DNA of 60,816 nucleotides, counting the filler, from Hausera hauseri (taxonomy: Eukaryota): NCBI GenBank assembly GCA_046269625.1. It is 12 parts of 12 records of this genome, joined end to end, with 100 filler letters (N's around TTAATTAATTAA, not from the genome) between each part and the next. Parts side by side here need not be neighbours in the genome. Positions count along the whole stretch, not along the records: positions 41,874 to 46,157 come from JBJURY010657775.1; 11 more parts are not named here. The stretch is one strand, 5' to 3'. A model generated the notes under the pieces. That model was not told where the DNA came from, searched no databases, and worked only from the letters and a program-made list of their open reading frames with translations. The translations under genes were made by a program, and so were the position numbers. Below are positions 22,257 to 60,816 of the stretch, in pieces (the stretch's first letter is position 1; every line of letters starts with the position of its first letter).

Positions 22257-22360
22257 AATGAGAAACAAATTAAAGTAAGTCTAAAATGCTGTATATGTTA
22301 AATTATTTAAATTAAAATAAATCGCTACTTCTACGGCAGTGGTGGTTGTGGTCTAAGGGC

Positions 22361-22377
22361 GACTATAAATATTAGTC
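22361..22377. promoter_or_regulatory. Candidate bidirectional TATA element between divergent genes
   Basis: GACTA-TAAATAT-TAGTC inverted repeat, with TATAAA on + and TATTTATA on -. It lies between polB (-) and the + strand ORFs. Confidence 0.4.
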
Positions 22378-22404
22378 ACTCAATGCCACTACAAGTAAAA
22401 CACA

Positions 22405-22668: not shown

Positions 22669-22793
22669 CTGCATTTGTATTATAATGTATAATTTTCTAC
22701 GTATTTGTTTTTATGCATCCGTGTATTGTATTTTATGTTCTCGCTACATTGGAGTAGTATAAATGTTTATTGCGTTACCTGTAGGATTACAAA

Positions 22794-23303
22794 ATGTCCC
22801 ATTATACTCAACTCATTGCTCTGTATCACTCATTCGACGGTCTACGGAGTCACCTTTACAATCTCGATCGACCTTTGGATAATGACGCTTCGTATTCGTC
22901 GCCCGAAAAGATGGTCCTGCGTGCAGAGGAGAATTGGAAGACACGAAACCCCTATGTACGCCACATGAAACATATTGTTGGTGATATGAATGTGGTATTA
23001 GGTGTGCCTTTCCATACGCATAAGAAATTAGCGGATGATTATGCATTGTGCGATAATAAGTGTCAAATACGATTTCTGGATGGTTTTATAAAACGTGATG
23101 ATCCGGTTGAATTTGTTCTAACGTGGCAGTCAGAGAATGAGATTTGCTTGAGGCAACATTGCAATGTGATTACTTCAGATGGTCTTGATCACTATCCTAC
23201 CGAATTGGCTAATCCCCGTGGATTATATAATTCGAATAGATTTGAAAGTCTGGGTTGCAGAAGTAGTGATTCAATGTTAAAAGAAGATGACGAAGAAAAA
23301 TAA
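22794..23303 (+). CDS. Hypothetical 169-aa protein of the Polinton-like element
   Basis: Intact ORF with an ACAAAATG start context and an AATAAA overlapping the stop. It sits between polB and the protease. No family recognised. Confidence 0.6.
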   Translation: MSHYTQLIALYHSFDGLRSHLYNLDRPLDNDASYSSPEKMVLRAEENWKTRNPYVRHMKHIVGDMNVVLGVPFHTHKKLADDYALCDNKCQIRFLDGFIKRDDPVEFVLTWQSENEICLRQHCNVITSDGLDHYPTELANPRGLYNSNRFESLGCRSSDSMLKEDDEEK

Positions 23304-23360
23304 TAAATGTTTGTTGCAGACTTTGTTTTCACTACTCAACAAAATCGTTAAAGCGCGAAA

Positions 23361-23593
23361 GGTAGGGGAATTTAGGTGTCCGAAAACTGGGTCAAACAAA
23401 AATGTTCGTTACAGTCAGATAGGTGGATAAATGCGGTTGTCCGGAACTGGGTCACAGAAAAATTTTTCAAATGTTTTTTATAGTCAGACAGGTGGGGAAA
23501 TGTGGTTGTCCGTAACTAGGTCAGTCTAAAAATTTTTGAGACCCAACTCACCTCGCTGAGGCCAAATATGCAGGTGTCCGGAACAAGGTCAGT
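23361..23593 (+). repeat. Degenerate tandem repeat of about 60-80 bp, four cores
   Basis: Core GG(T)TGTCCG-[A/G/T]-AAC-W-RGGTCA near 23375, 23435, 23504 and 23573. The first three cores are followed by A/T tracts. Confidence 0.8.
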
Positions 23594-23599
23594 CCAACG

Positions 23600-23854
23600 A
23601 CAAACCGGCGGCTTTATTGTCAATACACACATTTCATCGTTGCTGGGCGAACATTGGATTGCTGTGTACGTCCACCCTCCGACCAACGTCGTCAGAGTAT
23701 TCGATCCGCTCGGATTTTACTATCCGCCATCATTAGTTTCTCAAATTGAATGGCAATCATCATATCGTGTTGAATATAATCGAGTTCATTATCAACATCC
23801 AATGACTATACTGTGTGGATATTACTGCTTATTGTGGCATATATACAATCACTT
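23600..23854 (+). CDS. Adenain-like (Polinton/adintovirus) cysteine protease, partial
   Basis: FIVNT...GEHWIAV (catalytic His), FDPLG (Asp), YQH...CGYYC (oxyanion Gln and catalytic Cys). The N-terminus is apparently lost and the ORF runs off the contig end. Confidence 0.85.
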
Positions 23855-23989
23855 NNNNNNNNNNNNNNNNNNNNNNNNNNNNNNNNNNNNNNNNNNNNTT
23901 AATTAATTAANNNNNNNNNNNNNNNNNNNNNNNNNNNNNNNNNNNNNNNNNNNNATGTGAATTTGGCAAATTGCTCGTCGGTTGATAAC

Positions 23990-26900: not shown

Positions 26901-27300
26901 AAGTCTTCATCACAAGCAACACAGCACATTGAATCAGAAAACCATACAAAACGTCTACCACAAAATATTGTTCAACAGCCAAGCACAAATTAATCAAATA
27001 AGGCATACAGAGTGACATTAAGTACCAATAGTAGGGAAAAATCCGTAGACGGAATACAACACCTCATACACACCAAACCAAATAGGCACTGAAAATTTTT
27101 TACGTTTTGTCTCTTTCTGTTTTTCTTTACGGTTTCTTTTCTGCCATGGGGGTGTGTGATGTAGTGCCACGGTCTATGCCATGGCCCTCCATTTTTGGCC
27201 ATCGGGTTACCTTTCGGTGCAGCTAGGCCGGCACGGTTTTCGTCCTGCCTTTTTACCTTTTGGCCTGTGTTTTTTGGCATCCGAACAGTCAATATCAGTG
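23990..27300 (+). mobile_element. Ty3/Gypsy family A degenerate pol with PPT and 3' LTR start; copy A3
   Basis: RT HPYIDDIL, RNaseH TTDAS, integrase CAAC/HTTPYHPQSN, GPY and an S/P-rich tail. PPT CATGGGGGTGTGTGA then TGTAGTGCC at 27160. Confidence 0.95.
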
Positions 27301-27683
27301 TCAAATAAAATCAATATCCTTATTTGGTTGTTTAGCAGGCTACCAATTATCCTATCTTTTAATTTTGACCGTTTGTTTCATAATCGTCGTTGAAAAGCCT
27401 GGATTGAAGTTGGAAGTAATGAATGACAACACAAGCCCAACTAAAGCATGTCGAGTACATAAAAATACCCACTGAATTCATCGGTTTTGCATAGTCTTGT
27501 AAAAAGACAAAATAGAGAAGCTAACTGAAGTTCCGTAAAATTTCTGGATTTTTACGGAAAGGGACTGACATGCCATCATTACGATTTCATTACCACAATA
27601 TCTTAATGCTCATCACCAATTATCGATCTGATGTAAAACATATCTCAACAACATTGCGTTAAAGAGAATTACTTTCCAATTCG

Positions 27684-27866
27684 GAATTTAATCTAAAAGA
27701 TTGTGGATATCATGATAAATCTCGTACAGTTCAATTAAATCGTAGTGAAAATGCCGGGTACATCAAATGCAAAATTTGCCTCGAAGATTATCAAACAATA
27801 ATATATTATTTAAGTCATGAAGTCGATGTATATAATGACTGAGTAAACGCATGTGAAGAAACAAGT
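27684..27866 (+). pseudogene. ELOF1: Transcription elongation factor ELOF1/Elf1 pseudogene
   Basis: EFNLKDCGYHDKSRTVQLNRSENAGYIKCKICLEDYQTIIYYLSHEVDVYND*VNACEE aligns with Elf1 (…[30 protein letters not shown]). The first Zn cysteine is lost and Trp is replaced by TGA at 27840. Confidence 0.85.
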
Positions 27867-28374
27867 AGCAAAAGGCAATTACTTTTGATTGAATATATTT
27901 TTGTACAGTTTCCGTTAGGATTTAGTATTATTTTACGACTAATTTAAAATTGCAAGTAACAGAGATTGCTGTAAATTATTCAGTATCACCGAACCCGAAT
28001 TATTTAAATAAATTTGTATATTCAAAATAAAAAAAGAATATATTTTCAAATTTGGAAAATGTCTTATTCTCAAAATTCTCCAAAACGGTATACAACATCA
28101 AAAATAACGGAGTCGTGAGGGGGGGGCAGTGCATGATAGTCTGATTCAACCGAACTTTTTATTTTTATTTCGTTGTTTTAATATATAAAAAATACTGGCT
28201 TTTTTCCTTTGTATCAGTCCCACATTTTTTTACGTTAATACAATTTCTGGTATTCCTTCATTTTCGAATGTGTCNNNNNNNNNNNNNNNNNNNNNNNNNN
28301 NNNNNNNNNNNNNNNNNNTTAATTAATTAANNNNNNNNNNNNNNNNNNNNNNNNNNNNNNNNNNNNNNNNNNNN

Positions 28375-37612: not shown

Positions 37613-37750
37613 NNNNNNNNNNNNNNNNNNNNNNNNNNNNNNNNNNNNNNNNNNNNTTAATTAATTAANNNNNNNNNNNNNNNNNNNNNNNNNNNNNNNN
37701 NNNNNNNNNNNNGATTTACAAGATAAAAAACTTTCCTCAAGGAGCAAAAA

Positions 37751-38143
37751 ATGACTGTCCGATCTATTCATACTTCTAAGGCACCAAAAGCTATAGGTCC
37801 GTACTCTCAGGCAGTATTTACCGGGGACTTTCTTTTTATCTCGGGTCAAATTCCTTTAGATCCCACTACTGGAGAAGTAGAGATAGATTTTAAAAAAGCA
37901 GTGAGACGTTGTCTTTTGAATTTGCAGGGAATTTTGGAAGAATCACATCTAGGATTTGCAGATATTGTAAAAACTACAGTTTTTCTTACCGATATGAGCA
38001 AGTTTTCAGAATTTAATGAAGTTTATGAGGCTTTTTTTCAAGGGTGTTCTTTTTTTCCGGCACGATCTTTGGTGGAAGTACGGGCTTTACCTAGATCTGT
38101 TAGTGTGGAAATTGAAGCAGTAGCTCTTTGTGTTAAAAAATGA
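37751..38143 (+). CDS. ridA: RidA/YjgF family enamine/imine deaminase
   Basis: APKAIGPYSQAV, ISGQIP, PARS (catalytic Arg), VEIEAVA; SD AAGGAG at 37739-37744. Confidence 0.95.
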   Translation: MTVRSIHTSKAPKAIGPYSQAVFTGDFLFISGQIPLDPTTGEVEIDFKKAVRRCLLNLQGILEESHLGFADIVKTTVFLTDMSKFSEFNEVYEAFFQGCSFFPARSLVEVRALPRSVSVEIEAVALCVKK

Positions 38144-38167
38144 GGCAGAGTTTTTTTGGGGGACGTC

Positions 38168-39040
38168 GTGAGAGAAATATCTAAAGAGGAGATACGCAGT
38201 GCTTTTAAACCTATTTTAAAGCTTGCTATTGAAGAAGATCTGGGTTTTGGGGATATAACGACAGAGGCAGTTATCAGTTTAGATGAAGTCGTTACAGTAC
38301 ATTTATATGCCAAGTCTGCAGGAGTTCTCTGTGGACTCGATCTCTTTGAAGATGTTTTATCCTTGGATGGAGGCTTAAGGAAGATGAAGTTTTTTGCGAA
38401 TGAAGGACAGTTTGTTCCGGCAAAGACTTTGGTTTTGGAGATGGAAATTCTCCAAAACTCTATTTTGCGTTATGAACGTATTGCTCTTAATATTTTGCAA
38501 AGGCTTTCAGGTATTGCAACAAAGGCAAGGCAGTTTGTCGATGCCCTTGAAGGAACGTCTGTAAAGATTTTAGATACAAGAAAAACTCTTCCGGGGTATA
38601 GACTTTTGGAAAAGTATGCAGTTCGTACGGGAGGTGCTACCAATCATCGTTTTGGTCTTTACGATATGTTTTTAATTAAGGATAATCATTTGTCTATTGC
38701 AGGTGGGGTAAAACAAGCAGTTTCTAAGGTGAGAGAGTACCAAAAGAAAAACCCTCGTGTACAGCATTTACCAGTCGAAGTAGAGTGTAAAGATTTGTCC
38801 GAAGTTCAAGATGCAGTAGATATGGGAGTGGATATTATCATGCTTGACAATATGACGGAAAGTCTCTTGAAAAAGGCAATTGACATGATCCCAAGTCCCA
38901 TAAAGAAAGAAATTAGTGGCAATATCACCTTCGGAAGGTTAGGGTATCTGAGCCGTATGAATATTGATTATTTAAGTTGTGGAGCCATTACGCACAGTGT
39001 AGAAGCTGTGGATTTCTCTATTCGTGTTTTAGAAAAGTAA
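38168..39040 (+). CDS. nadC: Nicotinate-nucleotide pyrophosphorylase (quinolinate phosphoribosyltransferase)
   Basis: EDLGFGDIT, ERIALNILQRLSGIAT, DTRKT, NHRFGL, IKDNH, EVEC, MLDNM. The GTG start at 38168 follows a GGGGGA SD (the ORF track starts at 38156). Confidence 0.95.
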   Translation: MREISKEEIRSAFKPILKLAIEEDLGFGDITTEAVISLDEVVTVHLYAKSAGVLCGLDLFEDVLSLDGGLRKMKFFANEGQFVPAKTLVLEMEILQNSILRYERIALNILQRLSGIATKARQFVDALEGTSVKILDTRKTLPGYRLLEKYAVRTGGATNHRFGLYDMFLIKDNHLSIAGGVKQAVSKVREYQKKNPRVQHLPVEVECKDLSEVQDAVDMGVDIIMLDNMTESLLKKAIDMIPSPIKKEISGNITFGRLGYLSRMNIDYLSCGAITHSVEAVDFSIRVLEK

Positions 39041-39043
39041 GTT

Positions 39044-39727
39044 ATGGTAAGCCTTATTGCTAAGAGATTCCAAGAAGTAAGGCAGGAAATCCCTTCTGAC
39101 GTTTGTCTTTGTCTTGCAGCAAAAACGAGAACTTCTATGGAAATAATGGAGGCTCTTAATGCAGGAGCTACTGTACTGGGAATGAATTATGTTCAAGAAG
39201 CTAATCGCTTAAAACAAGAAGTGGAGGGACTTTGGACAGGAGAAAAGCCCTTTTGGTCTCTTATTGGACACTTACAGTCGAACAAAGTCCGATCTGCCGT
39301 CAAAATTTTTGATAGGATAGAGACAGTCGATAAAGAAGAGACTTTAGCTAAAATAGATAAAGAGTGCCAAATTTTAGGGAAAAAAATGGAAGTTTTTTTG
39401 GAAGTCAATATTGGCAAAGAAGTGGAAAAGTCTGGGGTTTATCCGGAAAAGGTAGAGGATTTATTACGAAAAAGCTGGAAGTTTTCTCACCTCACTGTTT
39501 TAGGTCTTATGACGATGGGTCCTGCCAGTTTAGACCCTGAGGCACTCAGACCGTATTTTAAGAAAACAAAGGATCTTTATGAAGAGCTTCGTGTTTTGCA
39601 TCAGAAAAATACGGGAGAGGATTTTACGTATCTTTCTATGGGTATGAGTGATAGTTATAAAGTTGCTATAGAAGAGGGGTCTAATTATATTCGTTTGGGG
39701 ACGAAGATTTTTGGAGAACGCCCTTAA
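39044..39727 (+). CDS. yggS: PLP homeostasis protein YggS/PLPBP
   Basis: AAKT (PLP Lys), NYVQE, IGHLQSNK, GLMTMG, LSMGMSDSY, IRLGTKIFGER. Confidence 0.95.
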   Translation: MVSLIAKRFQEVRQEIPSDVCLCLAAKTRTSMEIMEALNAGATVLGMNYVQEANRLKQEVEGLWTGEKPFWSLIGHLQSNKVRSAVKIFDRIETVDKEETLAKIDKECQILGKKMEVFLEVNIGKEVEKSGVYPEKVEDLLRKSWKFSHLTVLGLMTMGPASLDPEALRPYFKKTKDLYEELRVLHQKNTGEDFTYLSMGMSDSYKVAIEEGSNYIRLGTKIFGERP

Positions 39728-39735
39728 GAAATAAA

Positions 39736-40923
39736 TTACTGTCCTAACCAAAAACGTTTTACTTCATCCATGGAATTATTTTGCAACCCCTCTCGAATAT
39801 CTTTCATTAGCCTATTCATCTGATGGATATTATGCATAGTAACAAGCTCCAAGCCAAGAATTTCTTGGGCTTTAAAAAGATGATGAAGATAGGCTCTTGA
39901 GTATTCTTTTAAGAAAGGTACTTGAACGGTTTCATCGATTGGTCTTTCATCTAATTGATAACTACTATTTAAAAGGTTTAATTTTCCACTTTTTACAAGA
40001 CTTCTTGGCATGATAGCCCATCCGTGGCGAGCAATACGAGTAGGATGTACACAGTCTAGGGTATCGATTCCATGTGAAACAGCAAAAAAAACATCCTCTA
40101 CCGTTCCTATACCGAGTAGATGAACAGGTCTTTCAGGAGGAAGGAGACTTCTCGTGAGTGCAACCGTTGACTGCATCTGTGGTCTGTCCACCCCAAGGGA
40201 ACCACCGATGGCCATACCAAAAAAAGGCATTTCTTTTAAGCTGTTTGCACTGATGATACGTAAATCCTCATACACTCCCCCTTGAACAACGCCATAAATA
40301 GCTTGTTTGCCATCATTGGTGCGACTGAATTCGTCCAAAGAGCGTTTTGCCCAACGTAAGGAGAGGTGCATCGACTTTTCTGTGTAGGGTTTTTCCACAT
40401 GAAAGGGGGTACATTCGTCGAGTTGTACAATGAGGTCAGCACCGAGCTTTTTTTGAATTTGAATGCAAGATTCGGGGGTGAGCTCTAGGATTTTTCCATC
40501 TACATAAGACTTAAAAATAGCCCCTTCTTCAGAGATTTTTAAGAGGCTTTTTTTAAGGACTTGCCTTTTTCCTTTGATCTCTTGGCTAACACTACCGTGT
40601 CCCATTGCAAAAATTTGATACCCACCAGAATCGGTTAACATAGGAAGGTCATTATTCATAAATGGGTGTAGTCCACCTAAGCTTTCTATGGTGTCAGCAC
40701 CAGGGCGAAGGATGAGGTGATACGTATTAGAAAGGATAATTTGAGTGCCAAGTTCTTTTAAAAGGTGAGAGGGAACGCCTTTGATAGAGGCTTTTGTTGC
40801 ACAAAAAATAAAATTGGGAGTTTCGACGATGCCGTGAGGAGTTTGTAAGGTACCAAGTCGAGCTTTTTCCCAAGAAGTTTCTTTATAGGTGAAAGAAAAG
40901 TGAGGATAGGTGATAGGATTCAT
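39736..40923 (-). CDS. tgt: tRNA-guanine(34) transglycosylase
   Basis: ARLG..TPHG, SNTYHL, TDSGGYQ (catalytic Asp), LDEC, VQGG, HLLGIG, LDCVHPTR, YSRAYLHHL. Confidence 0.95.
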   Translation of the reverse strand: MNPITYPHFSFTYKETSWEKARLGTLQTPHGIVETPNFIFCATKASIKGVPSHLLKELGTQIILSNTYHLILRPGADTIESLGGLHPFMNNDLPMLTDSGGYQIFAMGHGSVSQEIKGKRQVLKKSLLKISEEGAIFKSYVDGKILELTPESCIQIQKKLGADLIVQLDECTPFHVEKPYTEKSMHLSLRWAKRSLDEFSRTNDGKQAIYGVVQGGVYEDLRIISANSLKEMPFFGMAIGGSLGVDRPQMQSTVALTRSLLPPERPVHLLGIGTVEDVFFAVSHGIDTLDCVHPTRIARHGWAIMPRSLVKSGKLNLLNSSYQLDERPIDETVQVPFLKEYSRAYLHHLFKAQEILGLELVTMHNIHQMNRLMKDIREGLQNNSMDEVKRFWLGQ

Positions 40924-40928
40924 AAATT

Positions 40929-41423
40929 TTATTCCTGTAAAAAAGATTCTACTCTTTTAAGAAAAGTTTCAGCCGTAAAAAATTCTGGCAAGATTTCATA
41001 GTTTCCTTTAGCATTATAGATAATAGTCAGGGGAATGCCTATTTTACCGTAGGATTTAATAAGTTTTGCTAGGGTCTCATCTTTTTTAGTCCAGTCGAAT
41101 AAAACGAGAGATATCCCTTTTTTGGTGAGAAAATTTTGGACTTCTTGTTGCTCAAAAGTCATTTTTTCATTTAACTTGCAATTAATACACCAAGATGCCG
41201 TAAAATAGAGTAAAAAAGGCTTTTTTGTGACTTTTAAATCGTCTATAAGACCTTCTTTATAGACGTTCCATGACAGCCCTCCATACTCACGTTTACCTTC
41301 TACGAATCTCTTCTCTGTTTCTTGGTTTTTCTGAGAGATATAGAAGGCAGAAATCGAGAGTATGAGTAATAAAACCAAAAAGAGTGCATATTTTTTATAT
41401 TCATTTCGGTAATTATTCATCAT
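40929..41423 (-). CDS. DsbD-like C-terminal thioredoxin domain with one transmembrane helix; probably a 5'-truncated dsbD
   Basis: LYFTASWCINCKLNE (CxxC), DWT and GIP (cis-Pro loop) are typical of DsbD-gamma. The DNA upstream no longer looks bacterial. Confidence 0.75.
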   Translation of the reverse strand: MMNNYRNEYKKYALFLVLLLILSISAFYISQKNQETEKRFVEGKREYGGLSWNVYKEGLIDDLKVTKKPFLLYFTASWCINCKLNEKMTFEQQEVQNFLTKKGISLVLFDWTKKDETLAKLIKSYGKIGIPLTIIYNAKGNYEILPEFFTAETFLKRVESFLQE

Positions 41424-42063
41424 GGGGCATGCCGGTAGGCGTGGTCAGTTAGCCTCTCTCACGACATGCAATTTTTGGTGCCAAGACTCCAATTTCACTC
41501 ATGATGTCTTGATTAGTTTTCCTGCCTTTCCTGGGAACGTGTCACATGTTTCTCTAGCATCCCATATTTCCATCATCAAACTGTATGTCACCTCTTTGTT
41601 TGTTGTCTGTGTATTTTTAAGACAGCAATGTACATAAACGAAATAACAATGTACTTATAAACCTGGCCTGTTTTGCTTTCCCGCCGATGATCTCTAGGTT
41701 ATAACGCAGATTTGTTTGTCTTTTCTTGTCAACAATCTATTTCTCTTTACATTTAATTGTTTTGTTTTCTCAANNNNNNNNNNNNNNNNNNNNNNNNNNN
41801 NNNNNNNNNNNNNNNNNTTAATTAATTAANNNNNNNNNNNNNNNNNNNNNNNNNNNNNNNNNNNNNNNNNNNNAAGTGTTTATTGTTATGCCAAAGTTAT
41901 GTTTCTATGAAATAAATATGTTATGAAAAATACTTGTTTTTTACTTGTATAGTAGTTATTTAGTTTTACTTGGCCTTATCCTATATCCCACATTACTTGA
42001 TCAAAAAGACAAGACGATATCTTTTGTAATATTTATTAACAAAGAATAATAATATTTACTTAT

Positions 42064-45000
42064 TTACAGTGCCACATACCCATGAAGTAGTGTGCTTATT
42101 CCATCACCAATGATCTGCCGCTTATCGTCCATCCAACCTAGACTCTTCTTCTGCAGCCTTACAGTTAGGATCTCATGAGCCCTAGATTGAATCCTTCGCA
42201 TATCTGATATAATGTGAGACTGCTCATGCACGACTGTTACATATTTATCGAAGCTAATTTTCTTAGCTAAAGTAGCCCTTTTTGAAAGTAGCCCTTTAGT
42301 CCGCTTCTTTATTTGACCACATATATCGATGGCATACATTTTGCTCCGCAGCGCCACAAATCTCGAGATGATTGCCCAATTAACCTCGTTTCTGAATTAC
42401 CCAAGGACCTTTTTGTTGGCTATTGAATAGTTGGAATGATCCTTCGGATCATCCGAGGTACCCATATGCTCTGCCAACTTAGCAAAATCCTCATAAATGT
42501 CCTGCGTATGGATCTGATAGACGAAAGTATCAGTATCCATGCAAATCAGCTGTATGGTCGTGAATGTGGGAACCATGATGTTGTAATGGAATTTATACAT
42601 TAGGGTCTTTGACAGATCCAGTATTACCATACCCACATACATGGGCTTGTTGAATTGCACGGATGTTTTCACCATATGGATACTGACCAAGTTCTCCGCA
42701 TATATAATGCTGCTGTGGAAATTGGGTTTGGCAATGAGCATCTTTGTCCGCTTCCACTCATAGACCAGTTCGATGTTAATCCTGTTGCGGATGTTTTCTA
42801 TGGTCTTGCCAGAAACGCTGTTGTTGTACAGCTTAAATTGTTCGTTCCTTGGCATTTGTCCACAGCTTCGTATTGAGATCTATGTAGGGCTGCAGCCAGT
42901 TGGACTGTCTGAACTACAAGGGCCAATGAATCTTAGTAATGCGGAGTTCATTCCTGTCCGCCTGCTGGAGAGTGGACTACATACCTCTCCCTACTATCCA
43001 GATGGCAGAGCATCTTTCTATGTTTTTTATGGGGCGGAGGCTTGCTCTCAGGGAGGAAAGGCAGCTGTTCATGCCTCGCGTGGATGGAAGACGGATACTC
43101 TACATCCACCTCCAGTATTTATCCCGTATCTCCACTGGAATCCAGGTCCGGTATAAGGATGTCTTCAGGATTCTCGACACATTTGAAGTTGTCGTACGGC
43201 AATGGGGCGCTCATTGCCCATCCATATAAATTGTTGGCATCCAGGTATGATATATATGAGGATTCCTTGGATGGATCATACTGGGCCTCGCTATACCGGT
43301 GAATGGCCTGGCATATTCCGCCTCTAATGCCTCTGTCAATCATGATGATCATGTCGTAATCCTTTATGATCTGCAGGATAATTCCGGTGTATCGTAGCAT
43401 TGGTACCGAGACCATTCCTGGAGCCGTAAAGAAATGATTAGGATCCAATGCATGGCTCTTCGTCGTAACATCTTGAAACTCTCAAAGGTATCTGTCAGCA
43501 GCAGTACGTCCATCTTGAGGTATATATCGCTGCATGCTCCCAATGTTCGGCATTAGAATGCATGCCAGACATTTTGAGTATACTGGTAGTAAACATTACT
43601 GATATCGCAATCAGAGAGGATATTGGAAAATCTGTCCGTAGCTGACAATGAGGTTTCATCCAGTGTTTCCCATTAGGTTATGTGGTCATAGGGAAACACG
43701 CCTTTCCTCTTAACATGGTTAAAGGTAGTGAGGAAAAACCGCTTTGTCTCCTTGAGTTCTTCTGCATGGAGGTTCTTCACTAAGGTGTCAAATGAAGATG
43801 ACATGAAACGGAAACTGTCCATTAAGCAAAGCCGCACTTTACCACCATGTTTGGTAAAAGTGACGTATTTTTCTTCACTATTTGGAATGACATCAATGTT
43901 CCCCTCAATGTTGCCCAGTTCCCGAACAATGAAATGGGAGTCATATCCACTGAGGTTGTGAAACACTACAGGCACATATGTACATGTTTTGCAACGCAAA
44001 TTTCAGTTGTTGCATGCTGTACTTCGATATGTGCCTGTAAAATGGCAGTGATCCCTGACTTTTCAATTCTCCCTAGTGAATGACATATCGCACAAGTAAC
44101 ATGATGTTGCCTTGCGCCATTCTTTTTCCTCTATATTTGACATGCTCATGTTGTACTTATGTTGTTGCAGCATATCTCCAATCCTACGAACCATGTTTTC
44201 AAGTCGTTTGGTGAAATGAGCTGCTGCGCCTGGACCCCTGAATACATATGGTCCACTGTCCAGTCCTTTGGCATACATGATATTGATATGTCGTTGTGCT
44301 GGTATGTTGTGGATTAGGGCTGCAGCTGTGAACTGGACGCAGGATAGCTTCAAAGTCGCAGTAGATTACTATTGGGTCCTTGATCTTCTTCTCGTACTCT
44401 TTAAATACGATGTACTCCTACTTGAGGAATTCTGATTTGACACAATATTTGTTTCGGCAGTACATTTTGTGCTCTGCAAGCTTGTCAACAGCTGCATCAC
44501 CGCTGAAATGGGAAAAGCATCGTTTGCATATTTCTATTTGTCCATGATGTTTTGTAATTTGAGATCTGACTAGACCCTCAAAGTTCTTCATCCAAAAATA
44601 ATGTTCCTTTTCTCCATCGTCCAGTAGGAGCAGATCCCTATGATTGTCCAATTCAACATCACATATTTGCAGGGATAGAATATGTCCTCATCATCCAATC
44701 CAATGATGTTGATGGATATATTGTTGATTCGACTGGAATTCTTGACTTCATCTATGGATGGCACATCCTTATATAACCAAACTCCTGAAGCATTGTGTTA
44801 ATCCCGTACCAGTTTTGATAGAATGTTAAACATGAAACACGTTCTCATTATTATGGACATTGATGCATGCGTTTTTCTGCCGATTCCATCCATGGACCTG
44901 AATATATAAACTGCCATGCATAGGGGAGTACTTGTGGACATACATAAGCAGTCCCTTGATGGCTACCAGGATCCATCCACACTTCTTATCCTGGCTCTCC

Positions 45001-46013
45001 TCAGCCTCGTGGATCAGCTTCCTATTTTCCTCATGCAGCCATTCCACTATATTTGTTGTTTCCAATATGGGTATATTTTGAATCTTTAAGGCCCTTTTGG
45101 ATTCTTCTCCATTAACATTGATGTATGTAGCCTCCAGTTTCATATTGACTTCAAAGGCTTTGAGCTCAGTCATACTGACCTGAAGAATGCCTCTGTTTCT
45201 TTCTTTGTGTATAAGAGGAACTCTTGGAGAGTTGTTTGACCAGTTGCATTAATAACATATCTGCGGACTTTTTTCTTTAACGCTGCTGTATTAACTGGCC
45301 GCTGTCCTTGACTTTTTAGTGGAGACGTTGTGTCTGATGCTGCTGCGCCTGATGCAGCTGCGCGTGTTGCCGTGCCTCTCAATTCTTTAATATACTTCGC
45401 AGCTGCTGCTGAATCTCCCGCGGGATACCACGAAGCAGAATACTGCGAAGCATCATGCTGTGAAGTAGAGGCATCTATATTATGTTGCTAATTGAAGATG
45501 GCCTTCTTTGATTTTGATGCGAAGTGACTCAAATGATGTTTGTTATCATAATAGAACTTTATGTAACCTGCACCGCATACAGTCTCGCATCCCGGACACA
45601 TATAATATTGGATCCTTTTGGATTTGTGTCCATAATACCGCTGCATCGTTTCATAGCACTGTTGCGGATTATGTGCTTTGGATGTGCAATAAGTATAGGA
45701 ACCGCACATCTGATTTGCTTTTGGAACACTTGTTATCATTGACATATTACTGTTAAATATTTCTTTATTCGATTTTGTGAATGAATCCAGATGCTGTTTA
45801 TACTGGTTGTAAAATTCCTCGTAACCGGTCCGGCACACTACCTCACATGCAGGACACACATAGTATCGAGTCCTGTTGTGTTGGTATCCAAAATATTGCT
45901 GCATTACACTGTGGCAATTCTGCTTCTCGTGTTTCTGCACGATGCAAAATTTGTAGAAGTTGCAAATGTAAACAAATCAATTATTTGAGGAGCACAAATA
46001 ACAAACTCACCAT
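42064..46013 (-). pseudogene. Protein-primed PolB, near full length; copy 4 (same family as copies 1 and 2)
   Basis: YLDANNLYGW, KLYNNSVSGKT, MDTDT, FHNLSGYDSHF, CYLC...DHCHFTG and the N-terminal tandem Cys/His repeats. Frameshifted. Confidence 0.92.
45935..46010 (-). other. Predicted phase-0 GT-AG intron immediately after the pPolB start codon (copy 4)
   Basis: AGA-ATG(46013-11)|GTGAGT...GTGCAG|AAA CAC GAG gives MKHEKQNCHS in frame with ORF 45488-45940. Confidence 0.8.
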
Positions 46014-46257: not shown

Positions 46258-48935
46258 TCTTATAGAGGTCTTCGTCCTCTGTCTCCACTTGCCAGTATCC
46301 GGATTGTAACTCCAGAGTGGTAAACCATTTCGCTCCTGAGAGTCGATCTAATGCTTCTTTTACTGATGTCAATGGGAAAGAGTCTTTCATCATAAGATTA
46401 TTTAAAGCTCTGTAATCAATACAAAAATCGATGTTTTGTGGTACCTTTCTTCTTAACCATAAGGATGGGTGAATACCAAGATCTACAGCTAGGCCTGATT
46501 ATGTCTGACTTAAGCATTCGTTTGACTTCTTTTGTTATTTCGGGCTTTAATGAATGCGGCGGAGGGTACTATTTTGGCATCTTCTGGTCTTCCAAATCTA
46601 TTTTTTCGTTTGATCCTGGCTTTTTCTTCAGTGGAATAGTTAGTTTTAATGCTTTCGCTCTACCGATATTTTCTTCGTCCTTAGCAATAATCGATTTATA
46701 GCGGCATAACAATTCGTAGAATCGGCAATAATACTCAGGTGAAAACTTAGTTTCAACACGAGGTGAAAATTCGGCGTACTTGTAAGGCTTTTCTTCGATA
46801 GTTATTGACGATACTCTATATGTGTCTCCTAAAGTAGTATAAGCATGGAGCTTGACAGGAGTTTGCGCGTTATGAGCTATTCTAATTGGTACTCGGCTGG
46901 AGTGTACTCTCGTTAATACATTGCTGAGTAATATATTCGGATTTAACGTATCTCTCGGTTCAAAATATACTGGTTGATCATCATCTTGCTGTATCTGGGC
47001 ATAAATTATTATTTCTGTTCTTGGTGGAATGTTTTTGTCAATTGTTATCCACACTTCTCCAAATTTTCTAACCTTAGCGCTTTTCACGCCTTTATTTGGC
47101 CTGATTTCTATCAGCTTCCCTGTTTGTAAGTCAATTGCTATATTTGGCAGTCTTTTCAGTAGATCACATCCTAGAACTACGTCGTCGGTTAATTGTTCCA
47201 TAACCGCAAATTCATGCCGGAAAAGTTGTCCAACTAATTGAACTTCTGGGTTCCATTTAAACGAATATTTCGACATTTGACCAAAATCTCCTGTACTTCC
47301 TGGGTCCTTTGCAGACGGAGGATATAATTGTCCTCTTAGAGTTTGTGATATTGAACCATTTTTAATGTAAGACATTTCCGATCCTGTATCAATTAAGGCA
47401 TAAACGTCCCAATCTTCGATAATGATTTTGGCGAAGGGTCTCCCTTCTATTACTGTTCCGAAACAGTTCGGTGTATCCTTTGAGCGTTTCGCTGCCGATA
47501 TTTGTGTCCATTAATTCGGATTTCGGGAGAGGATACTATATTCTCCGATAATTGTCTTAATTCTTCATTTGGGTATAATTCGTTTTTTTCGATGTGTACT
47601 TCTTCCGCTTCGTGTGTACTGATTAATGGTTCTCGATTATTAGTATGTATTTCAGTATTCTGGAAAGTTTTTAACCTTGGATTGTCCCAAGCCATTGATC
47701 TAGTTTCTATATTCCGAGGTTCTCTCGGGGAATACAACATCTTGGGACCATCCGTGGATTGTCGATAACACATTTTCCGTAGAATTCCGTAACGCTTTGT
47801 TCCCTCATAAGGATCTTTTACATTAATTGTTCTTTTATAGATTTCCGTCTGATATGAACTCATGGATCGTTTTTCGCAATCTTCATAGAATTGAGCGGTA
47901 GGAGGTAACATGGGTAATGGTGCTTTAACGACAGAGTACATTTATTCCTGAAAGTACTTCTCCTCCCTTAGGCTCGTCATCATCTGAATTATTTCGTTGT
48001 GAATTGGGTTTTGTAAATTTCTGCTTTCGCAAGAATATGGTTTTTCCTTTTCGTTTACGATTATAATAGCCAACATGGCGTTCTACGTCCGATTTCCATC
48101 TATTTTCTTCGTATGCTTTCAAGAATTTTCCAAAGGGCGTTATGACTGCCGTCAATATATTACATGAAAATCCAGTCAATGTAAATATTACATAACCATT
48201 TATTACTGCCTGGATGACTGCTTTAATCAGAAGTATATCGCTAAAAATCCGGATGCAGCTTGTCCGAATATCAGAAATTTTCCGAACATTTTGTAAAGTA
48301 TTTCGGTTGTTACTCGCTGATAATGATTCACACCGAGTAAAGATTTCCATTTAGCTTGATATCGGGTGTCGTCTACTACAGACGCAATGGCTCGATTTAG
48401 CTCATGTGTTCGTTGTCGTGGAAAGGCAAGGAATTGTCTCAAAGCCTCAATTTCCTTCGGTCTGTATATGCCTTTCGATGAAGTGTCTTGAAATTTATCG
48501 TCTGATTTTCTTTTCGCGAGGTTGGTTCCTGTTAATTTATTTGGAGCGGCAATAATACCTCTGTAAGATTTACAGAGCATTTAATTAATAAATTCATTTT
48601 GATATGACATGGTTTGCCGGGCCCATTACTAGCAAACCTTTTTCTACAAATTATGTTTTCTATTATTAATTTTATTCTTCTTTTTGAAACCCATAATCCC
48701 AGTACCGGTTTCTTTTGTGGAAGACAAATTGTCATCTGAGAAGACTCCCTATTTCCACGTCTATCTTTGTTTGTAATCATCACTACCCCGTCGATTTCGC
48801 TTATGCCGAATATTTTTCCTGTTGACCGAAGTTTTATAACATCTGGTCTATATATCCCCATATACCCTTTACCCAATATATAGTCATATATAATATTCCT
48901 CAAATTAATTTCTTTAGTTTTCGCAGCCATTGATA
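46258..48935 (-). mobile_element. Ty3/Gypsy family B, degenerate gag-protease-RT start
   Basis: Protease ALIDTGSE; RT SPILMVKKK...RFCIDYRALN...DSFPL...WFTTLELQSGYWQV. Candidate LTR end and PBS ...TATCA-A-TGGCTGCG at 48918-48935. Confidence 0.88.
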
Positions 48936-49139
48936 TCGGAGGGCTGCTCTCCGGGGGAATTTCTCCACCATTAAATATGTGTCTGTAAACAAGCATACAG
49001 ATTTTATCAGACACACACAAACACACACAAACCCTGGCAGGGCTAGCCAAACCAGAAAAACGAGAATAACAATGGTAACTAATAACAATATTATTTATAC
49101 GACACACAAGTACCTTCCACGTTCCTGGAATAATCAAGT

Positions 49140-50012
49140 GAAACTCGGTCCTGAGTAATAAATCAAAGTAGTTCGTATTCGATACATTTTTGTTTCCAAC
49201 TTCAAACATAGACGCATCAGTGGATTTCCATTTCTGTATTAAATTTGAGCCTTGAATATCTTTTACTTTAACTATGATTTCCTTTAAATCACAATCATTT
49301 CGACAAAGGAGTTTTGGAACGGTTTTTAAACTTATCTGATCATTTTTTTCAAGTTCTGATATATATTTTTTCCATCTTTTCCCATCATCAGATCGAGATT
49401 TAATTTCAGAAATTCGCTGAGATATAGACACAGATCCAAATTTTAACACTTTAAATCTCAAAATAAACGTTTCAGAAATTTGTATTTGTTTCTGTAAATA
49501 AGACGATTGGGACAGTTTTGATCGTCTATATTTCTGAGGCCTCTCCTGGCCTGAATTTCGCATATTTTTCAGTGAGAGGCGAAAGACATAATCCGCGAAT
49601 TTGTCCGCGTCGAATGATACCTCATTTTCATCTTTTCTCTTAATATTTTGGGCAAATTTTAACGTTGTCGATTTTGTCCTTAATAGGACTTTTTGAGCAA
49701 TCATTTCAATTTTGTATTTAGAATTCATAATTTCTTTGATTTATATTATCAATATATCCATATTACTGCTATAGCAGTATTCTGTACATATATTAACATA
49801 TATATTGACATTCACACATTCGTTGTAAAAGCGCCTAGAACGGCCACGAATTCCCGAGCACAATCCTCGGAATTGATAATACTAATTGAAAAACAATAAT
49901 CTTCTACTGATAAATCATAGTCGCGATGATATTCAACACCTATAATGAATGAAGCAGAAAGTGGTCGCGAGATGACTACAAATGCTATCAATATAATGGT
50001 GGTTCCAAGCAT
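49140..50012 (-). other. Unidentified host coding fragment interrupted by the family B element
   Basis: Hydrophobic segments in ORF 49812-50012, followed by about 200 open K/S-rich codons. Possibly a membrane protein with a long loop; not identified. Confidence 0.3.
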
Positions 50013-52519
50013 TATGAATCTAAATATACAAATTATTTCTGCTCTTATCCATTAATTTGAATGTTTTACCATCTTAGTTTTCCTTTGATTGTTTACTTTT
50101 CGGCGATTGGATAACCTGCCACAATTCCAAACCCCAAATCCGTTTCGTTGCGCATTGCTATTTCTAACAACCGACAAAATTTGAAAATGACTTAACTCGA
50201 ATTGCAAGGTGAGAATCACCCTTTGTTGGATAAAAACTTACAAATTGCTTGTTTGTAAACATATGACTGCTACATGATCATAATATATTAGGTTTGACTA
50301 TTCATTGTATTACAAATAAATGTTATTCAGCTGAGAATTTCGAAGTGAAGTGAATTCAATTATTCAAATTAAAGATATTGGTACCAATAGTTTTGTTTTT
50401 TAGTTTGTGGATTTCCTCGCATGTCCAAAGGAATAATTGAAACAATTGAAAGTATGTTTACTACTGTGTATTACCTTCATTTTAGTGAATATATTTATGA
50501 ATCAACATTTTGTCAAATTTCAAAAAAAAACTTTGAATTTCGGTTTGCAGGGAGACTGAAACTTAATAAGCAAACTCTTCATAACAAAAGCAAACAATTT
50601 GACGATTAAATGGTTATATTTGATACCCCTAAAGTTGTTTTATGCAAAGGAAATTTTATAGTAAAAGTAACAGCCATATTGCTATTTGTAATTGAACGTT
50701 TGCTAAAATAAGCAAAACATTCTAACAGATGTGCTTATATCAACGTACGAATTTGTTTATAGTAATATGATATAATTCCAATAAAACTTAATTACCAGGT
50801 CTTAAGCATTATAATAACGGTGGTTGTGTAAATAGGTGAACAACAATAAATATGAATAACAATAAGTTCCATTGAATCGTTTTAGTTCATAATACAACGT
50901 ATGATGATAAAATCTAAAACAATTGAAGAAAACCTGAAGTTAAATAAGCAAAATTTTCCAATTAAATAGTCTTAAAACAAGAGTAAAATAACAAAGAACG
51001 TCGCTGCATGTATGTATTACATAGTATTCGTTATTTAAATGTAACAGATATTGATTGAGAAATCAATCAAATATGTAGTTATTATATTTTGTCTGTTATT
51101 GGGTATTAACCTAAAGTAATTCTTGAGAAATATTATATATTATATTACTTGTATATTTATGACAATTATGTTAACTTCTGTCGTTTCATCTGTTAGCAGA
51201 TGTATTGCATAATACTTTATACCAAGCTCTTTTCATTCTACACAAGAAGTTGCCTTGTACACTTTTTATTCATAACTGGAGTTGTTGTTAGTAAAGTTAA
51301 ATATTTTATTGTTTTCATTCATTCACGAATATTCGCCCAAAGGATCTCTTTTTACGGATTTTTATGCAGAAGAAATTACGTTCTTTGCTTACAAAGTATT
51401 GCAATAATAATGTTGTAGTTATGTTGCAGTTAAATTCCCGACATTTTCTCGCCGCTTAGATTCTGACATTTTCTTCAAATGTAAATATCAATTGTAGAAA
51501 TTTTCTTGGCATTTGTGCAATACAGTAATGGTAATTTAGAATTTAGAAAGTAGTTGAAAAGGCCATTTAAAAGATCGATAACCCAATATAAATGAAAAAT
51601 TTGCGAACGCCTACATCGCATGTCATATAAAATTACCCGAAATCGTGTATGCCTAGATAGCGAGNNNNNNNNNNNNNNNNNNNNNNNNNNNNNNNNNNNN
51701 NNNNNNNNTTAATTAATTAANNNNNNNNNNNNNNNNNNNNNNNNNNNNNNNNNNNNNNNNNNNNTTAGTAATAGCTAAACTTCTAACAGCTTCTAATTCT
51801 ACTACAAGATTAATCAAGTTTATATACTGGTGGATAATCACCCACATCAAAAGAATATAGTCACGCAGCCGCACCGTGGCGCTACCATTAGATTTACATT
51901 TGTCAGTCTTATCTACATCTTTCAGATTTTCTTATTTCCTCTTCGATCACGACAGAAATCAAATTCATCAAGCTGGCGGCTGAACAGTGACGTCAGCTGT
52001 TATTTTATTGTTTATCAGTATGGATTTATTGAAATGTATTACAAAAACTAATTTTGCGTCAACTCTGGATAATTCCATATTGATAATTTTTTACTAAACT
52101 ACGGAATATAATGATTTTAAGTAATTTCTTTTATAAGAATCTCCAGTAATATTATATAATAAGTAAGAAGTATGGATCACTGAACAAATCACTAAATCAA
52201 CCGATAACTTAGAAATGGATCAAGTTCTGTAATTGACAACTGTCCATTTCACCCATATGTCACAAATCTAAAGCATGTTGGAACACTTTCTTACAAACAT
52301 TGAAAAGTTCAAAACTTATGGATTGTGACGAACATAAAACATTTCTACATGAAAAAGCTGATAGTGAAGCATTTGACAATTCATGATGAAAGTAACGAAT
52401 TGTCTTTCAATCTTTTGGATAAGGTCGTGCTTCCACAAGAATCAGACATGCGGTGAAAATGGAAAAATACGGATGATTTTAGTAATATTTTTTCATTAAC
52501 TCGGAACATATTGACATCC

Positions 52520-56770: not shown

Positions 56771-58190
56771 TTGCATCACCCAGGTTCCAAGGCTACATTC
56801 CGCCTTCTCAAACGTCACGTAACATGGCCATCAATGAGGTCTGATGTGCAGAGTTGGGTTAGGCAATGTGTAGCTTGCCAAAAATTCAAAGTTGTTAAAT
56901 ACCTTAAACTACCATTATTCCATTTCCCATGTTCATCCCGTTTTGGGTCAGTACATATAGATATCGTTGGCCCATTACCTTCCGATAACGGCCACCAATT
57001 CATCTTAACAATGATGGACCGCGCGTCTCGCTGGCCTGAAGCCGTTTTTTTGCGCACCATCAACACAGACTCGATTGCCGATGCATTCATAAGGATTTGG
57101 ATTAGCCGCTTCGGTTCACCTCGCTATATAATTACAGACCAAGGTCCTCAATTTGAATCGAACCCATTCAAATCTTTAGTTAATCGACTGGGCATAAATC
57201 AAATACACACAACTCCATATCATCTCCAGTCGAACGGCTTATTGGAACGCTTTCATCGAACTCTCAAGATCTCGCTAAAAATCCTGGCTGAATCTCATAA
57301 GAATTGGACAACCATACTCCCTTTTGTTTTACTTGGGTGGCGCAACACGCCGTCTACTACCACCGGTTGCGCACCTGCTGAAGCACTCTTCGGTATTACA
57401 ATTCGTGCACTTTTCGAGCTCACTGATTTGAACAACACACCAACTGATGAAACAAATAGGCCTGTACAAAATCACTTCGTTCAGCTAAGCCAGGATTCTT
57501 TCTGTAAAATAAAACATGGAAACAAAACATACTTACCTGACTGGCTATTTAATGCAAAATTCGTTTGGCTAAAAACCCTTCACCTTCGGGATTCCAACCA
57601 AACTATTTAGGACCATTTAAAGTCCCCAACCTAAGTTCATACACGGTTACCATAGTCAAAAACGATAAAGAGCAAAACGTACACATAAATAACGTAAAAC
57701 TAGCCTTCTTCGTCGATGATACACCGGAATCTTCAGTTGAATCCACATAAAACTTTCTTGATTCTTTCAATTCTTCTCCCATGCTACCTGCACAAGAACC
57801 TGCTACTCCAAAACGTGTATCGACTCATAACATTACGCAAAACGACATACCGACTAGTTCTCGAGCTACTGATACGTCAAATCAAAATTTAACTTCCTCC
57901 CAACCAACTCAGCAAGCAATCAAACAACACAGTAAGAAACATAAGACAGATACCTTCAGAAAATACAGCAGAGAACAGAATGTCGATAAAATTCAACGCC
58001 TTGTTCATACAAAGATGCAATAACTCATAAAACGTATTCTTTCCACGTTTCTGTTTCAATCACATCAAAAACTTGCTTCTTTCAATATTTCGTCAACACC
58101 TCACTCTTTGTTTTCTTGCTTTCGCCTCGACAATGTCATTTTATAACGGGGAGTGGTGTGGCGTCACGGGCGCCGCCACGTTCCAACAAC
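56771..58190 (+). mobile_element. Ty3/Gypsy family A integrase, tail, PPT and LTR start; copy A5
   Basis: Open 279-aa integrase ORF (HHPG, CVAC, HIDIVGPLP, TDQG, ERFHR). PPT ACGGGGAGTGG then TGTGGCGTC at 58157. Confidence 0.95.
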
Positions 58191-59509
58191 AATGCAGAAT
58201 GCTTAACAATCTATCGTCAGTCCAAGTTGCTAATCAAGTACAACATTCTCAATGAAAACTATATTCTTAGTGTTGCTGCTGACAAATGAATGTCGTCAAA
58301 GCTATTTGTACCAGTCCTTTGAAATTGCTTTTATAAAGAATTTGTCATAATAAAGATGATCAGTCCAACAATATGAAAACAAGAGGTTTCTTTTGGAAAA
58401 AACAAAATCGTACGCCTACATTACGTGATTTTACAGCCGCAAGTGGTGAAACCATCGTTCGTCGAAGGTACGTCCAGGCGCTAAGTTTTTGAAGAAAACA
58501 CAATTAGTCCAATATTAATGGTCCATGTCGAAATTCTTCGGCATGTTATAAAATTCGTCAATTAATCGTACAAATGCCATTAGAGCAACCGAAACGCACA
58601 GAATTATATTTAGCAATATTAACATTTCCAAAACCTACATCCAGCCAGAATTTTTCAATAAGTCAGGAATTTAAAGATCAACGCTATTCTGCATGTGGAA
58701 ATATTTGTGATCCGTTAAAATGATCCAAGACAAGTAAGACGACAAAGATTGAGCACATCAGCAATATCAGACATACCTCCCGTTAATTCAATTTTAGACA
58801 TAATATTTTCCATCTATGATGCATTTGGTTCTGCGTATTTACGACGACGATCTAGTACATTATCTCAATCGGGACATAATCGATCGGATATGTCCTAACG
58901 TTATGCTCAAATCAAAAGATATTGCACAATAAAACATTTCATACAGCAAAACATTTTATGGACAACCTTTTTATTAGAGAACGCATTTTTTGTCTTTTAT
59001 CCAACGTATATCGTTGATATGTAAATATACAAATTGTGGTAATGTAGATTGATTTATAAAGAGTATAACGGCAGTAAAATTCTATTTTACTTACATTTTG
59101 TACTACTTAATTTTCAGTATGAGACGTGTTTTATATGTGTGTTTTGATTCTATATTTGTTACCTTGTTTTCTAGATGTTTACGTTTGGATTCAACATTGT
59201 TACGTTTTTTTACTTTTATTATTTGCGTTTTGTGAATATTATTATTGCAACTGTTATTAGTAAATATTTTTATTCGTAATGTTTCAGAAAATGACTCAAT
59301 AAAAAATTGATGACAAGTAATTGATAAAATTTTTTTAAAAACTGGTTGAGATAATAAACGTCATTAATAACCGTTTTGTTTTCTATATTACCGTTTATTT
59401 CTCATTCTGCCGTTCTACGTTCAATAAGTATAACAGAAGCGACTTCCGATTTGAATTATTTTTATACTCATTCATTATATAGAAAATTTTATTACGGTAA
59501 CAAATACGA

Positions 59510-60816
59510 TAATTCCAACTGCGTGGCACCCATCACTGATAGTACAGCTGTCAACACTATCTTCAAAACGAACATTCTGCACCTAATACCACCCTGTCAC
59601 AACACCTCGTCTACAACTCATACCTTAACTGCATCCACTCACGCTACATCGACACCATCTGAAAACTTTTCATCATTACCCTCTGACTTACAGCAATATA
59701 TTTCGACTTCCTGCGCGCGTCTCTTGCAAAAGGACAAATTATTCGTTCCACCTAAATCCACCTTCCATCACATAGTTACAGCACATTAAAGACCAATAGG
59801 TCAAAAGGTCCGCCCACTATTGCCTCTGCGCAGACAGGCAGTTCAGGCTGAGTTTCTCGAATTGGAAAAAGCAGGAATAATCAGAAGATCCAAATCCCCT
59901 TGGTCTTCACTACATGTGGATCCAAAAAAGGATGATACCTTTCGCCCATGCGATGACTACCGCCAACTCAACATCATAACAACAACGGATGCTTACCGTC
60001 TGACATTAATCTACGATATCATTCACAGGCTCCATGGTTCGACCATTTTTCCTGCATTGATTTGCACAAAGCATACCACCAAATTCCGGTGGCCCCAGCA
60101 GACATTCCAAAAACGGCTGTCATTATACCTTTCGGCCTTTTCGAATACGCTTTCATGCCTTTTTGACTCCGTAGCACTTCCCTGATCTTCCAAAGGCATA
60201 TTGATACAGTCCTCTCATGTGTAAACTTTGCTTATCCCTATATCGATGATATCCTAATTGCATCATCTTCCTCGAAACAACACTCCGAACACTTATGTTT
60301 AATCTTCTAGCGCTTGCACCAAAACAACTTGCAAATTAATTTCTCCAAATGCTCTTTTTTCAACATAAGGTCAACTACCTAGTACATATCATTAGCTCCT
60401 CTGGACATTCACCTCAGCCAAAGCGCATCACACAGCCCAAAAACATACAGATACCACGTACATCAACAGAGATGCGTTCTTTCCTCGGTACCTTGCACTT
60501 TATTCATAAGTATATTTTGCACTGCTTCACTCTAACCGCTCCATTTGCATCACTAAGCTCTGGCAAGAAGAAACATCCTATTCAATGGACCGCCAAGCTA
60601 GTCAACGCTTTCGATCACCTCAAGGAGAATTAAAAACCGTAGAAATCCTGGCCTATCCAGACTCCCATGCAGAACTCTTCTTAACCACGGACGCATACAC
60701 AACAGCTGCATGTGTTGTCCTCCATCAAGTCAAAAATGGATCCCATGAGCCATTAGAATTCTTCTCTCGAAAATTCACAGCACAAGAGCAAAGATATTCT
60801 ACCTTTGACAGAGAGT
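59510..60816 (+). mobile_element. Ty3/Gypsy family A degenerate RT-RNaseH; copy A6
   Basis: ELEKAGIIRRSKSPWSS, YPYIDDIL, MRSFLG, TTDA, LEFFSRK, YSTFDRE. Confidence 0.93.

Follow-up and report, generated by a model that had tools for sequence, protein, structure and literature searches.

In the available text of Krupovic et al. 2024 (PMC11071308, PMC11161782), D1 of pPolB, the polinton DNA polymerase of family B that is primed by a protein, is the terminal protein (TP), which is built from four strands and two helices and carries, after helix two and ahead of the last strand, a Ser or Tyr that often stands beside a Gly, and D2 is a vOTU protease proposed to cut between D1 and D2. The main text of that work names only D1 and D2 for polintons, and the word 'zinc' is absent from it. 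For adintoviruses, PolB of the Alpha group is described as matching pfam03175 and that of the Beta group as less than 30% identical to Alpha (Starrett et al., PMC8502044, available text). The accessible part of another study gives 6 bp as the target-site duplication of Polintons and reports that introns were not seen in intact vertebrate Mavericks (Barreat and Katzourakis, PMC8097293). In other protein-primed systems, DNA binding and targeting to the nucleoid are functions of the non-priming N-terminal domain of the phi29 terminal protein, and the adenovirus TP anchors the genome to the nuclear matrix (PMC4974454, available text).

In the genome assembly of Hausera hauseri, polymerases with this architecture were found to start with tandem Cys/His repeats. 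Judged from sequence comparison and modelling, these repeats are a real, conserved and apparently undescribed domain with two predicted zinc sites.

Results

Repeat copies in the analysed window

The window, i.e. the whole stretch of DNA that was analysed (60,816 nucleotides), is composed of 12 stretches drawn from the 869-Mb assembly (GCA_046269625.1). Tandem pairs of Cys/His-rich repeats were located on its minus strand at 45491-45967 (copy 4), 11056-11529 (copy 2) and 21816-22253 (copy 3). When copy 4 was used as tblastn query, copy 2 was matched with 56% identity (E 5e-52) and copy 3 with 27% (E 1e-13). Repeats 1 and 2 of copy 4 aligned with a score of 197 and copies 4 and 3 with a score of 182, the respective maxima of 1000 shuffles being 71 and 67. 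These matches and shuffle scores uphold the initial annotation, in which three broken pPolB copies were seen to start with two repeats, here measured at about 72 aa each. At least 150 matches in the assembly were obtained for each of two repeat families, with 10,916 and 7,385 first-look candidates. The families of copy 4 (family A) and copy 3 (family B) are far apart: over the body of the polymerase, identity to P0074, a public polymerase of 1286 aa with two units at its start, the first of them clipped by gene calling, amounts to 36-56% for copy 4 and to 25-31% for copy 3; the deep divergence of the two polymerase families noted before was thereby corroborated.

All features given in the following lie on the minus strand. 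In copy 4, repeat 1 (45752-45967, 72 aa) is of full length according to tblastn and the unit alignment, and repeat 2 (45491-45712, 74 aa) was the unit used for folding. Next come an in-frame stop (45488-45490) and a low-complexity linker with a basic cluster at its end (45281-45490 including the stop, lower bound approximate), a terminal-protein-like domain (D1; 44940-45280, bounds approximate) with a frameshift near 45200 and a degenerate conserved serine, and a broken vOTU-like domain (44560-44930, bounds approximate), which was placed by a Cys motif at 44839 and by the Cys and His motifs of relatives. The remaining pPolB, consisting of the exonuclease with an endonuclease-VII-like insert and the palm (42091-44550, upper bound approximate), contains many stops and frameshifts and is 49-56% identical to P0074 (tblastn). 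The stop after repeat 2 is missing in unbroken relatives, e.g. L051, L052 and L053.

The two repeats of copy 2 (11056-11529, by tblastn) contain stops at 11482-11484 and 11140-11142 and, when these two stops are read past, they are in frame with the downstream domain, as had been annotated; linker, D1, vOTU-like domain and broken pPolB occupy 7839-11055 (tblastn). In copy 3, the two repeats (21816-22253, by tblastn) have stops at 22227-22229 and 21885-21887 and are followed at 18679-21815, as delimited by tblastn with P0074, by the linker, D1, which starts at about 21683, the vOTU-like domain and a broken pPolB. The low-complexity linker reported after the repeats is present in all three copies. 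Repeat 1 had been regarded as shortened in copies 2 and 4, which proved incorrect: the actual starts are at 11529 and 45967, about 33 bases farther upstream than first annotated. In repeat 1 of copy 4 the first two Cys and the His are all present; in that of copy 2 the first two Cys are present, and the His position is degenerate and followed by a stop. A fourth pPolB of family-A type, 54% identical to P0074, was observed at window 1-2480 (copy 1) with its N-terminus absent, and LTR-retroelement pieces lie farther along the same stretch.

The repeat unit and its predicted zinc sites

A profile search of 1.84 billion representatives at E<=0.001 returned 72 hits, of which 70 truly contain the unit after removal of the false positives P0053 and P0057. 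Among 50 aligned hits, eight Cys/His are nearly invariant (C3 in 38/38, C9 in 40/40, H14 in 40/41, C19 in 40/42, C39 in 49/50, and C42, H57 and H60 each in 50/50). They are predicted to form two zinc sites, a CCHC site (site 1) with the pattern C-x4-6-C-x4-H-x3-5-C and a C2H2-like site (site 2) with the pattern C-P-x-C-x12-15-H-x2-H. As tandem units without site 1 exist, predicted site 2 is taken as the core. The Cys/His repeat of the earlier consensus was borne out, but the first cysteine of the unit had been left out; the eight nearly invariant residues agree with the metal-binding module that had been proposed to be kept across divergent polymerase families.

A model of the single unit (copy 4 repeat 2) with a pLDDT of 93.6 and a pTM of 0.81 consists of three short strands and three helices, with a helix leading and a helix that stops before the last His. 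An earlier two-repeat model, made from the own-genome alignment only, was of low confidence (pLDDT 49), and its fold search was uninformative. Most of the conserved non-ligand residues are aromatic and may belong to the core of the unit rather than to its surface. The net charge is positive in 52 of 66 units and negative in 11, with a mean of +2.2. Across copies, the dN/dS check called for by the initial annotation indicated purifying selection, with a net value of 0.11 for the units between two subfamilies and a similar raw value of 0.12 for D1; these values come from stop-free, top-scoring copies with dS near saturation (31 of 198 pairs saturated). Between one and three copies of the unit are present per polymerase. 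A tree of 104 units built with a quick method is mostly unresolved, 65 of 101 inner branches being open; in it, the units of families A and B from the assembly are not grouped with each other, and therefore no swap within the genome is claimed.

No named domain was matched in the libraries searched (Pfam, PDB sequences and fold searches), in keeping with the first impression. Fold searches with the pLDDT 93.6 model against solved and viral folds gave no match, which is not proof of a new fold. Word-index protein searches with copy 4 gave no match, PDB sequence searches with the unit nothing usable, and the ESM Atlas no usable feature match for copy 4 and P0001, with structure rows for P0001 of TM at most 0.32. 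Scans for related loci in viral contigs, metagenome contigs and a phage collection were without match. In Pfam searches of 70 own-genome sequences, scattered weak zinc-ribbon rows were the only result besides COX6A, which was the top row (14 of 70, best E 4.4e-6) and was dismissed as compositional; no zf-C2H2 row was among the matches listed for the own-genome units. A likeness to the polyomavirus large-T zinc finger or to papillomavirus E6 was supported by no search. The cluster records of 30 profile hits derive from ENA, JGI/IMG or Logan, and one is labelled hypothetical protein.

Neither this domain nor zinc fingers ahead of Polinton D1 were met with in literature searches or in the accessible text of Starrett 2021 (PMC8502044), Jeong 2023, Yutin 2013 (PMC3671162), PMC12721341, PMC13215967, 10.64898/2026.10.13.758929 and PMC7998265.

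Domain order and fusion to the polymerase

In unbroken frames the order is unit or units, linker with basic cluster, D1, vOTU-like domain and polymerase. Locus L112 of the same assembly has a frame of 1271 codons from repeat 2 through the polymerase end with polymerase motifs present, and frames of 467-595 codons run through unit, D1 and beyond in L113-L115. When intact copies were sought, unbroken repeat-polymerase frames were thus found, and not the repeats as a separate ORF, so that the fusion seen at the outset was retained. D1 or vOTU queries matched the same protein in 15 of 72 profile hits; such a match is absent in 55 of the 70 true hits, many of which are short or cut. The tails of the long hits P0069/P0073, P0062, P0066 and P0050 are unlike D1 and consist of unrelated sequence, so that proteins of other kinds may carry the unit as well. 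Of 14 fused proteins, 13 have a basic cluster ahead of D1, and Endonuclease_7 was matched in P0074 by Pfam.

Ordinary fingers were met in the same place. Pfam zf-C2H2 lies ahead of the units in 6 of 72 hits, P0063 combines two C2H2, two half-units, D1 and vOTU in one protein, and the polymerase L213 has a C2H2-like finger in the slot and no unit there. As a separate observation, P0041, P0063 and P0074 contain an internal finger-like motif C-x2-C...H between vOTU and exonuclease, for which matches to PRDM9 fingers were weak (E 0.3).

In an alignment of 29 D1 rows (15 loci and 14 public proteins), one serine is invariant (29/29), with Gly next to it in 23/29 and Trp after it in 29/29, and the vOTU Cys and His motifs lie downstream of D1. 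Between the two polymerase types D1 identity is only 13-19%. From the strand-helix pattern and the Ser motif, the domain after the linker can be assigned by motif only as terminal protein-like D1; searches of PDB sequences with the D1 profile matched no terminal protein or little-finger chain. The initial annotation had placed the repeats in the terminal-protein region, which did not hold, as a separate D1 with the invariant serine and then a vOTU-like domain lie downstream of them. The 'usual N-domain' expected after the linker is present, but is itself this terminal-protein-like D1. The repeat unit does not have the PRD1-like terminal protein (LF/PAD) fold, its modelled strands and helices being ordered differently; the pattern of a four-stranded sheet, two helices and a Ser/Tyr loop is seen in D1 and not in the unit. 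Being an extra piece ahead of the terminal protein, the repeats are therefore unlikely to be the primer.

Gene start and predicted splicing

In nearly all family-A copies, a single codon separates the first Cys from an in-frame stop that can be read as a splice acceptor. Of 29 copies, 28 have the AG acceptor at this position, copy 4 being the exception, and 19 have a donor motif 42-45 nt ahead of exon 2, directly preceded by ATG in 16 of these 19. In family B, 36 of 39 copies have an upstream stretch that ends in AG at the corresponding position, and an ATG with two codons and a donor-like motif lies 187-273 nt upstream in 15 of 41, many others being short of flank. Phase-0 introns whose ends lie no more than one codon ahead of the first Cys were predicted for L112 (ATG, then 48 nt), L115 (ATG, then 46 nt) and L114 (three codons, then 46 nt), and a second intron of 47 nt was predicted between the repeats of L112. 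Due to the fact that splice signals precede the first cysteine in five lineages, the start codon is likely on a tiny upstream exon, and the polymerase gene is very probably spliced from a first exon of one to three codons. Such splicing would explain why repeat 1 looked shortened, and the likely mini-exon would also be the reason why gene callers miss the start of the domain.

In the window, the family-A motif counts point to a likely start codon of copy 4 at 46011-46013, at the mini-exon end right before the splice donor, and the family-A comparison to a predicted phase-0 intron of 43 nt with a degenerate acceptor at 45968-46010. By motif reading, copy 2 has an ATG, a donor and a degenerate intron-like stretch shortened to 28 nt (11530-11560). 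For copy 3, a three-codon exon 1 (22442-22450) and an intron of 188 nt were predicted from the family-B comparison (together 22254-22450). Since a 43-nt intron occurs in an enolase gene of the assembly, at least one of the organisms represented there can have introns of such a size; the enolase loci L097-L109 represent several different genes with differing intron patterns. In one run of unknown kind, no joint was seen where the intron is predicted, an outcome that counts neither for nor against splicing.

Element type and neighbouring genes

The motifs of L112 and identities of 25-56% to P0074 characterise the polymerases as protein-primed family B, and TP (D1) and vOTU (D2) lie ahead of the polymerase by motif only. 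PF03175 stayed under the cut-off in copies 1 and 3, and no PF03175 row was obtained for P0074 or L112. The left ends of family A are sharp and start with AGTAG in 23 of 30 loci, as counted by eye; Polinton termini begin with AG. Polymerase, D1, vOTU-like domains and sharp AGTAG ends fit Polintons or adintoviruses.

An inverted left-end copy was found after the polymerase in 1 of 25 loci, and no contig covers a whole element. About 2 kb of upstream sequence and the downstream loci of families A and B, on contigs that are short, showed no integrase, packaging ATPase, protease or capsid gene. At L211 (G000:C45553), an integrase, an A32-type ATPase, a double jelly-roll capsid and further ORFs lie behind another pPolB, which is 39% identical to P0074 and the start of which lies beyond the contig edge. 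In the whole assembly, the capsid family PF21738 gave 11 matches among 29 candidates, compared with 10,916 and 7,385 candidates for the repeats, where first-look candidates are not copy numbers and the PF21738 model may miss these families. Family-A elements may often be without a capsid module.

Inverted or doubled ends were observed at L154 (G000:C104297), L206/L217 (C484353), L208/L218 (C269175) and L210. Among these family-A loci, one has an inverted left end (554 bp, 77%) just past the polymerase, two have a second polymerase tail to tail, and a third has an inverted N-terminal piece. Fold-back and nested insertion are indistinguishable here because the arm identity (83%, 78-81%) is near the 76-80% of unrelated copies. 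RING-finger ORFs were seen beside polymerases in two lineages (L136:754-1029 and downstream of L112). Upstream of family B (window 22300-23850, L133), two unnamed ORFs of 118 and 168 codons had no Pfam match.

Remaining parts of the window and composition of the assembly

LTR retroelement remains with protease, reverse transcriptase, RNase H and integrase were observed at window 46258-51664, 12181-18269, 23955-28274 and 56771-60816, and a viral fusion-glycoprotein-like piece (PF24664) lies within them at 47925-48350. Compact bacterial-looking genes (quinolinate phosphoribosyltransferase, alanine-racemase-like, queuine tRNA-ribosyltransferase, thioredoxin-like) occupy 37713-41773, which is probably a symbiont or contaminant contig. 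L094 encodes a divergent ubiquitin in GC-rich, gene-dense DNA and may be viral. With this ubiquitin and the several enolase genes the assembly looks mixed, and the compared polymerase lineages need not share one host.

Discussion

To our knowledge, no factor is known by which Polintons find their origin or host chromatin. The explanation regarded as best, to which an even chance is given, is that the unnamed domain of about 72 residues, with its two predicted zinc sites, extends the terminal protein and grips DNA or chromatin. D1 would prime synthesis on its invariant serine, and the vOTU-like domain would cut between D1 and itself, as in the model of Krupovic et al., which is a hypothesis in the literature. 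Given a cut after D1, the zinc module would not be parted from the terminal protein and would be located at both 5' genome ends, where it could help to engage the origin at initiation and could hold the linear genome on host chromatin. The gripping of DNA or chromatin is preferred because ordinary C2H2 fingers fill the slot in relatives, and it is further favoured by the mildly basic character of the units, by the basic cluster ahead of D1, and by the N-terminal part of the phi29 terminal protein, which does such a job with a different fold, and the anchoring by the adenovirus TP. The mildness of the positive net charge, with 11 of 66 units being negative, counts against it. Of the two roles suggested in the initial annotation, priming or origin recognition, action of the module in origin or DNA recognition is plausible. 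A bolder version, according to which a zinc fold without a solved relative, limited to a large, under-sampled group of spliced animal Polinton polymerases, rides on the terminal protein at the genome ends and tethers the incoming linear genome to chromatin and the finger slot is exon-shuffled, is considered possible but doubtful; if true, a swappable, exon-shuffled finger array would set where and in which hosts the elements replicate and integrate.

Some cellular OTU enzymes use zinc fingers to present substrate, and two domains away from the module lies a vOTU-like domain in which the Cys and His motifs are intact, so the module could instead bind a host protein, for instance ubiquitin or a chromatin or defence factor that is ubiquitylated, and feed the neighbouring vOTU deubiquitinase. 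RING-like ORFs beside relatives (Pfam RING at L136, a RING-like pattern downstream of L112) point the same way, as do 2 of 72 hits that match Pfam zf_UBZ weakly (E about 0.003). Both zf_UBZ matches are under the cut-off, however, and a UBZ finger was rejected: fingers of the polymerase-eta type that bind ubiquitin carry an acidic residue between the His, whereas none is conserved between the two His of the unit, and the modelled helix stops before the last His. Considering also that ordinary C2H2 fingers occupy the same slot, such an adaptor appears unlikely. Release of the module as a regulatory protein of its own (a transcription or cell-cycle factor) by cleavage, alternative splicing or intron retention would suit the second predicted intron of 47 nt between the repeats of L112, the many public hits of 70-146 aa that end soon past the unit, the non-polymerase tails of some long hits, and the small Cys-rich 'Oncoid' genes described upstream of PolB in the available text of Starrett et al. 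(PMC8502044). It is nevertheless judged distinctly unlikely, as unbroken fusions occur in both polymerase types and the short hits often end in hydrophobic runs, which we interpret as reading into an intron.

Little chance is given to a docking or structural piece which, within a polyprotein, keeps the terminal protein attached to the polymerase or times the vOTU cut. Helical extensions of stand-alone terminal proteins have been suggested to mediate TP-polymerase contact (Krupovic et al., PMC11071308, available text), and the module is kept where D1 domains share only 13-19% identity, but there may be one, two or three units, site 1 can be missing, the linker between module and D1 is long and variable, and related polymerases have other fingers or none in the slot. 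That the repeats form a gene of their own, or were inserted by chance or are the decayed rest of an insertion, and are fused in appearance only, could be read from the stop immediately after repeat 2 of copy 4; however, frames are unbroken over that point in L051, L052, L053, L072, L073 and L112-L115 and in 16 of 74 public proteins, and the units are under purifying selection. This reading is largely refuted by the unbroken fusions and is regarded as highly improbable.

The unit differs from a classical C2H2 finger by a longer Cys-to-His spacing and by the H-x2-H, and it has in addition a helix at its front and a second predicted site of the CCHC type: instead of C-x2-4-C-x12-H-x3-5-H, its H-x2-H usually lies 14 residues past the second Cys. 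The retroviral CCHC zinc knuckle is C-x2-C-x4-H-x4-C; predicted site 1 resembles it in ending with C-x4-H-x3-5-C and departs from it in a first spacing of 4-6, a last Cys in a helix and an attached second site. With the phi29 TP N-terminal domain and the adenovirus precursor TP, as far as their available descriptions go, the module shares the position of a non-priming N-terminal extension of the terminal protein; those are unrelated helical folds with no such zinc module, so that the likeness is one of analogy only. The nematode and oomycete pPolB2 (Jeong et al., 10.1101/2023.08.22.554363) have a similar Endonuclease-VII/HNH-like insert in the exonuclease region, whereas no N-terminal finger is described in the available text of that work.

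The closest match is the pPolB of Polintons/Mavericks as described in the accessible text of PMC11071308 and PMC11161782, with which the polymerases studied here share the Ser-Gly loop of D1 before the last strand, the vOTU motifs, the exonuclease and the palm. The zinc module does not define a new kind of element. It offers a small, well-modelled unit for testing how integrating protein-primed viruses find their origin or host chromatin. The difference lies in an extra predicted zinc module, in one to three copies, ahead of D1, by which the known picture of TP, vOTU, exonuclease and palm gains a third N-terminal domain, one that is matchless in the libraries searched.
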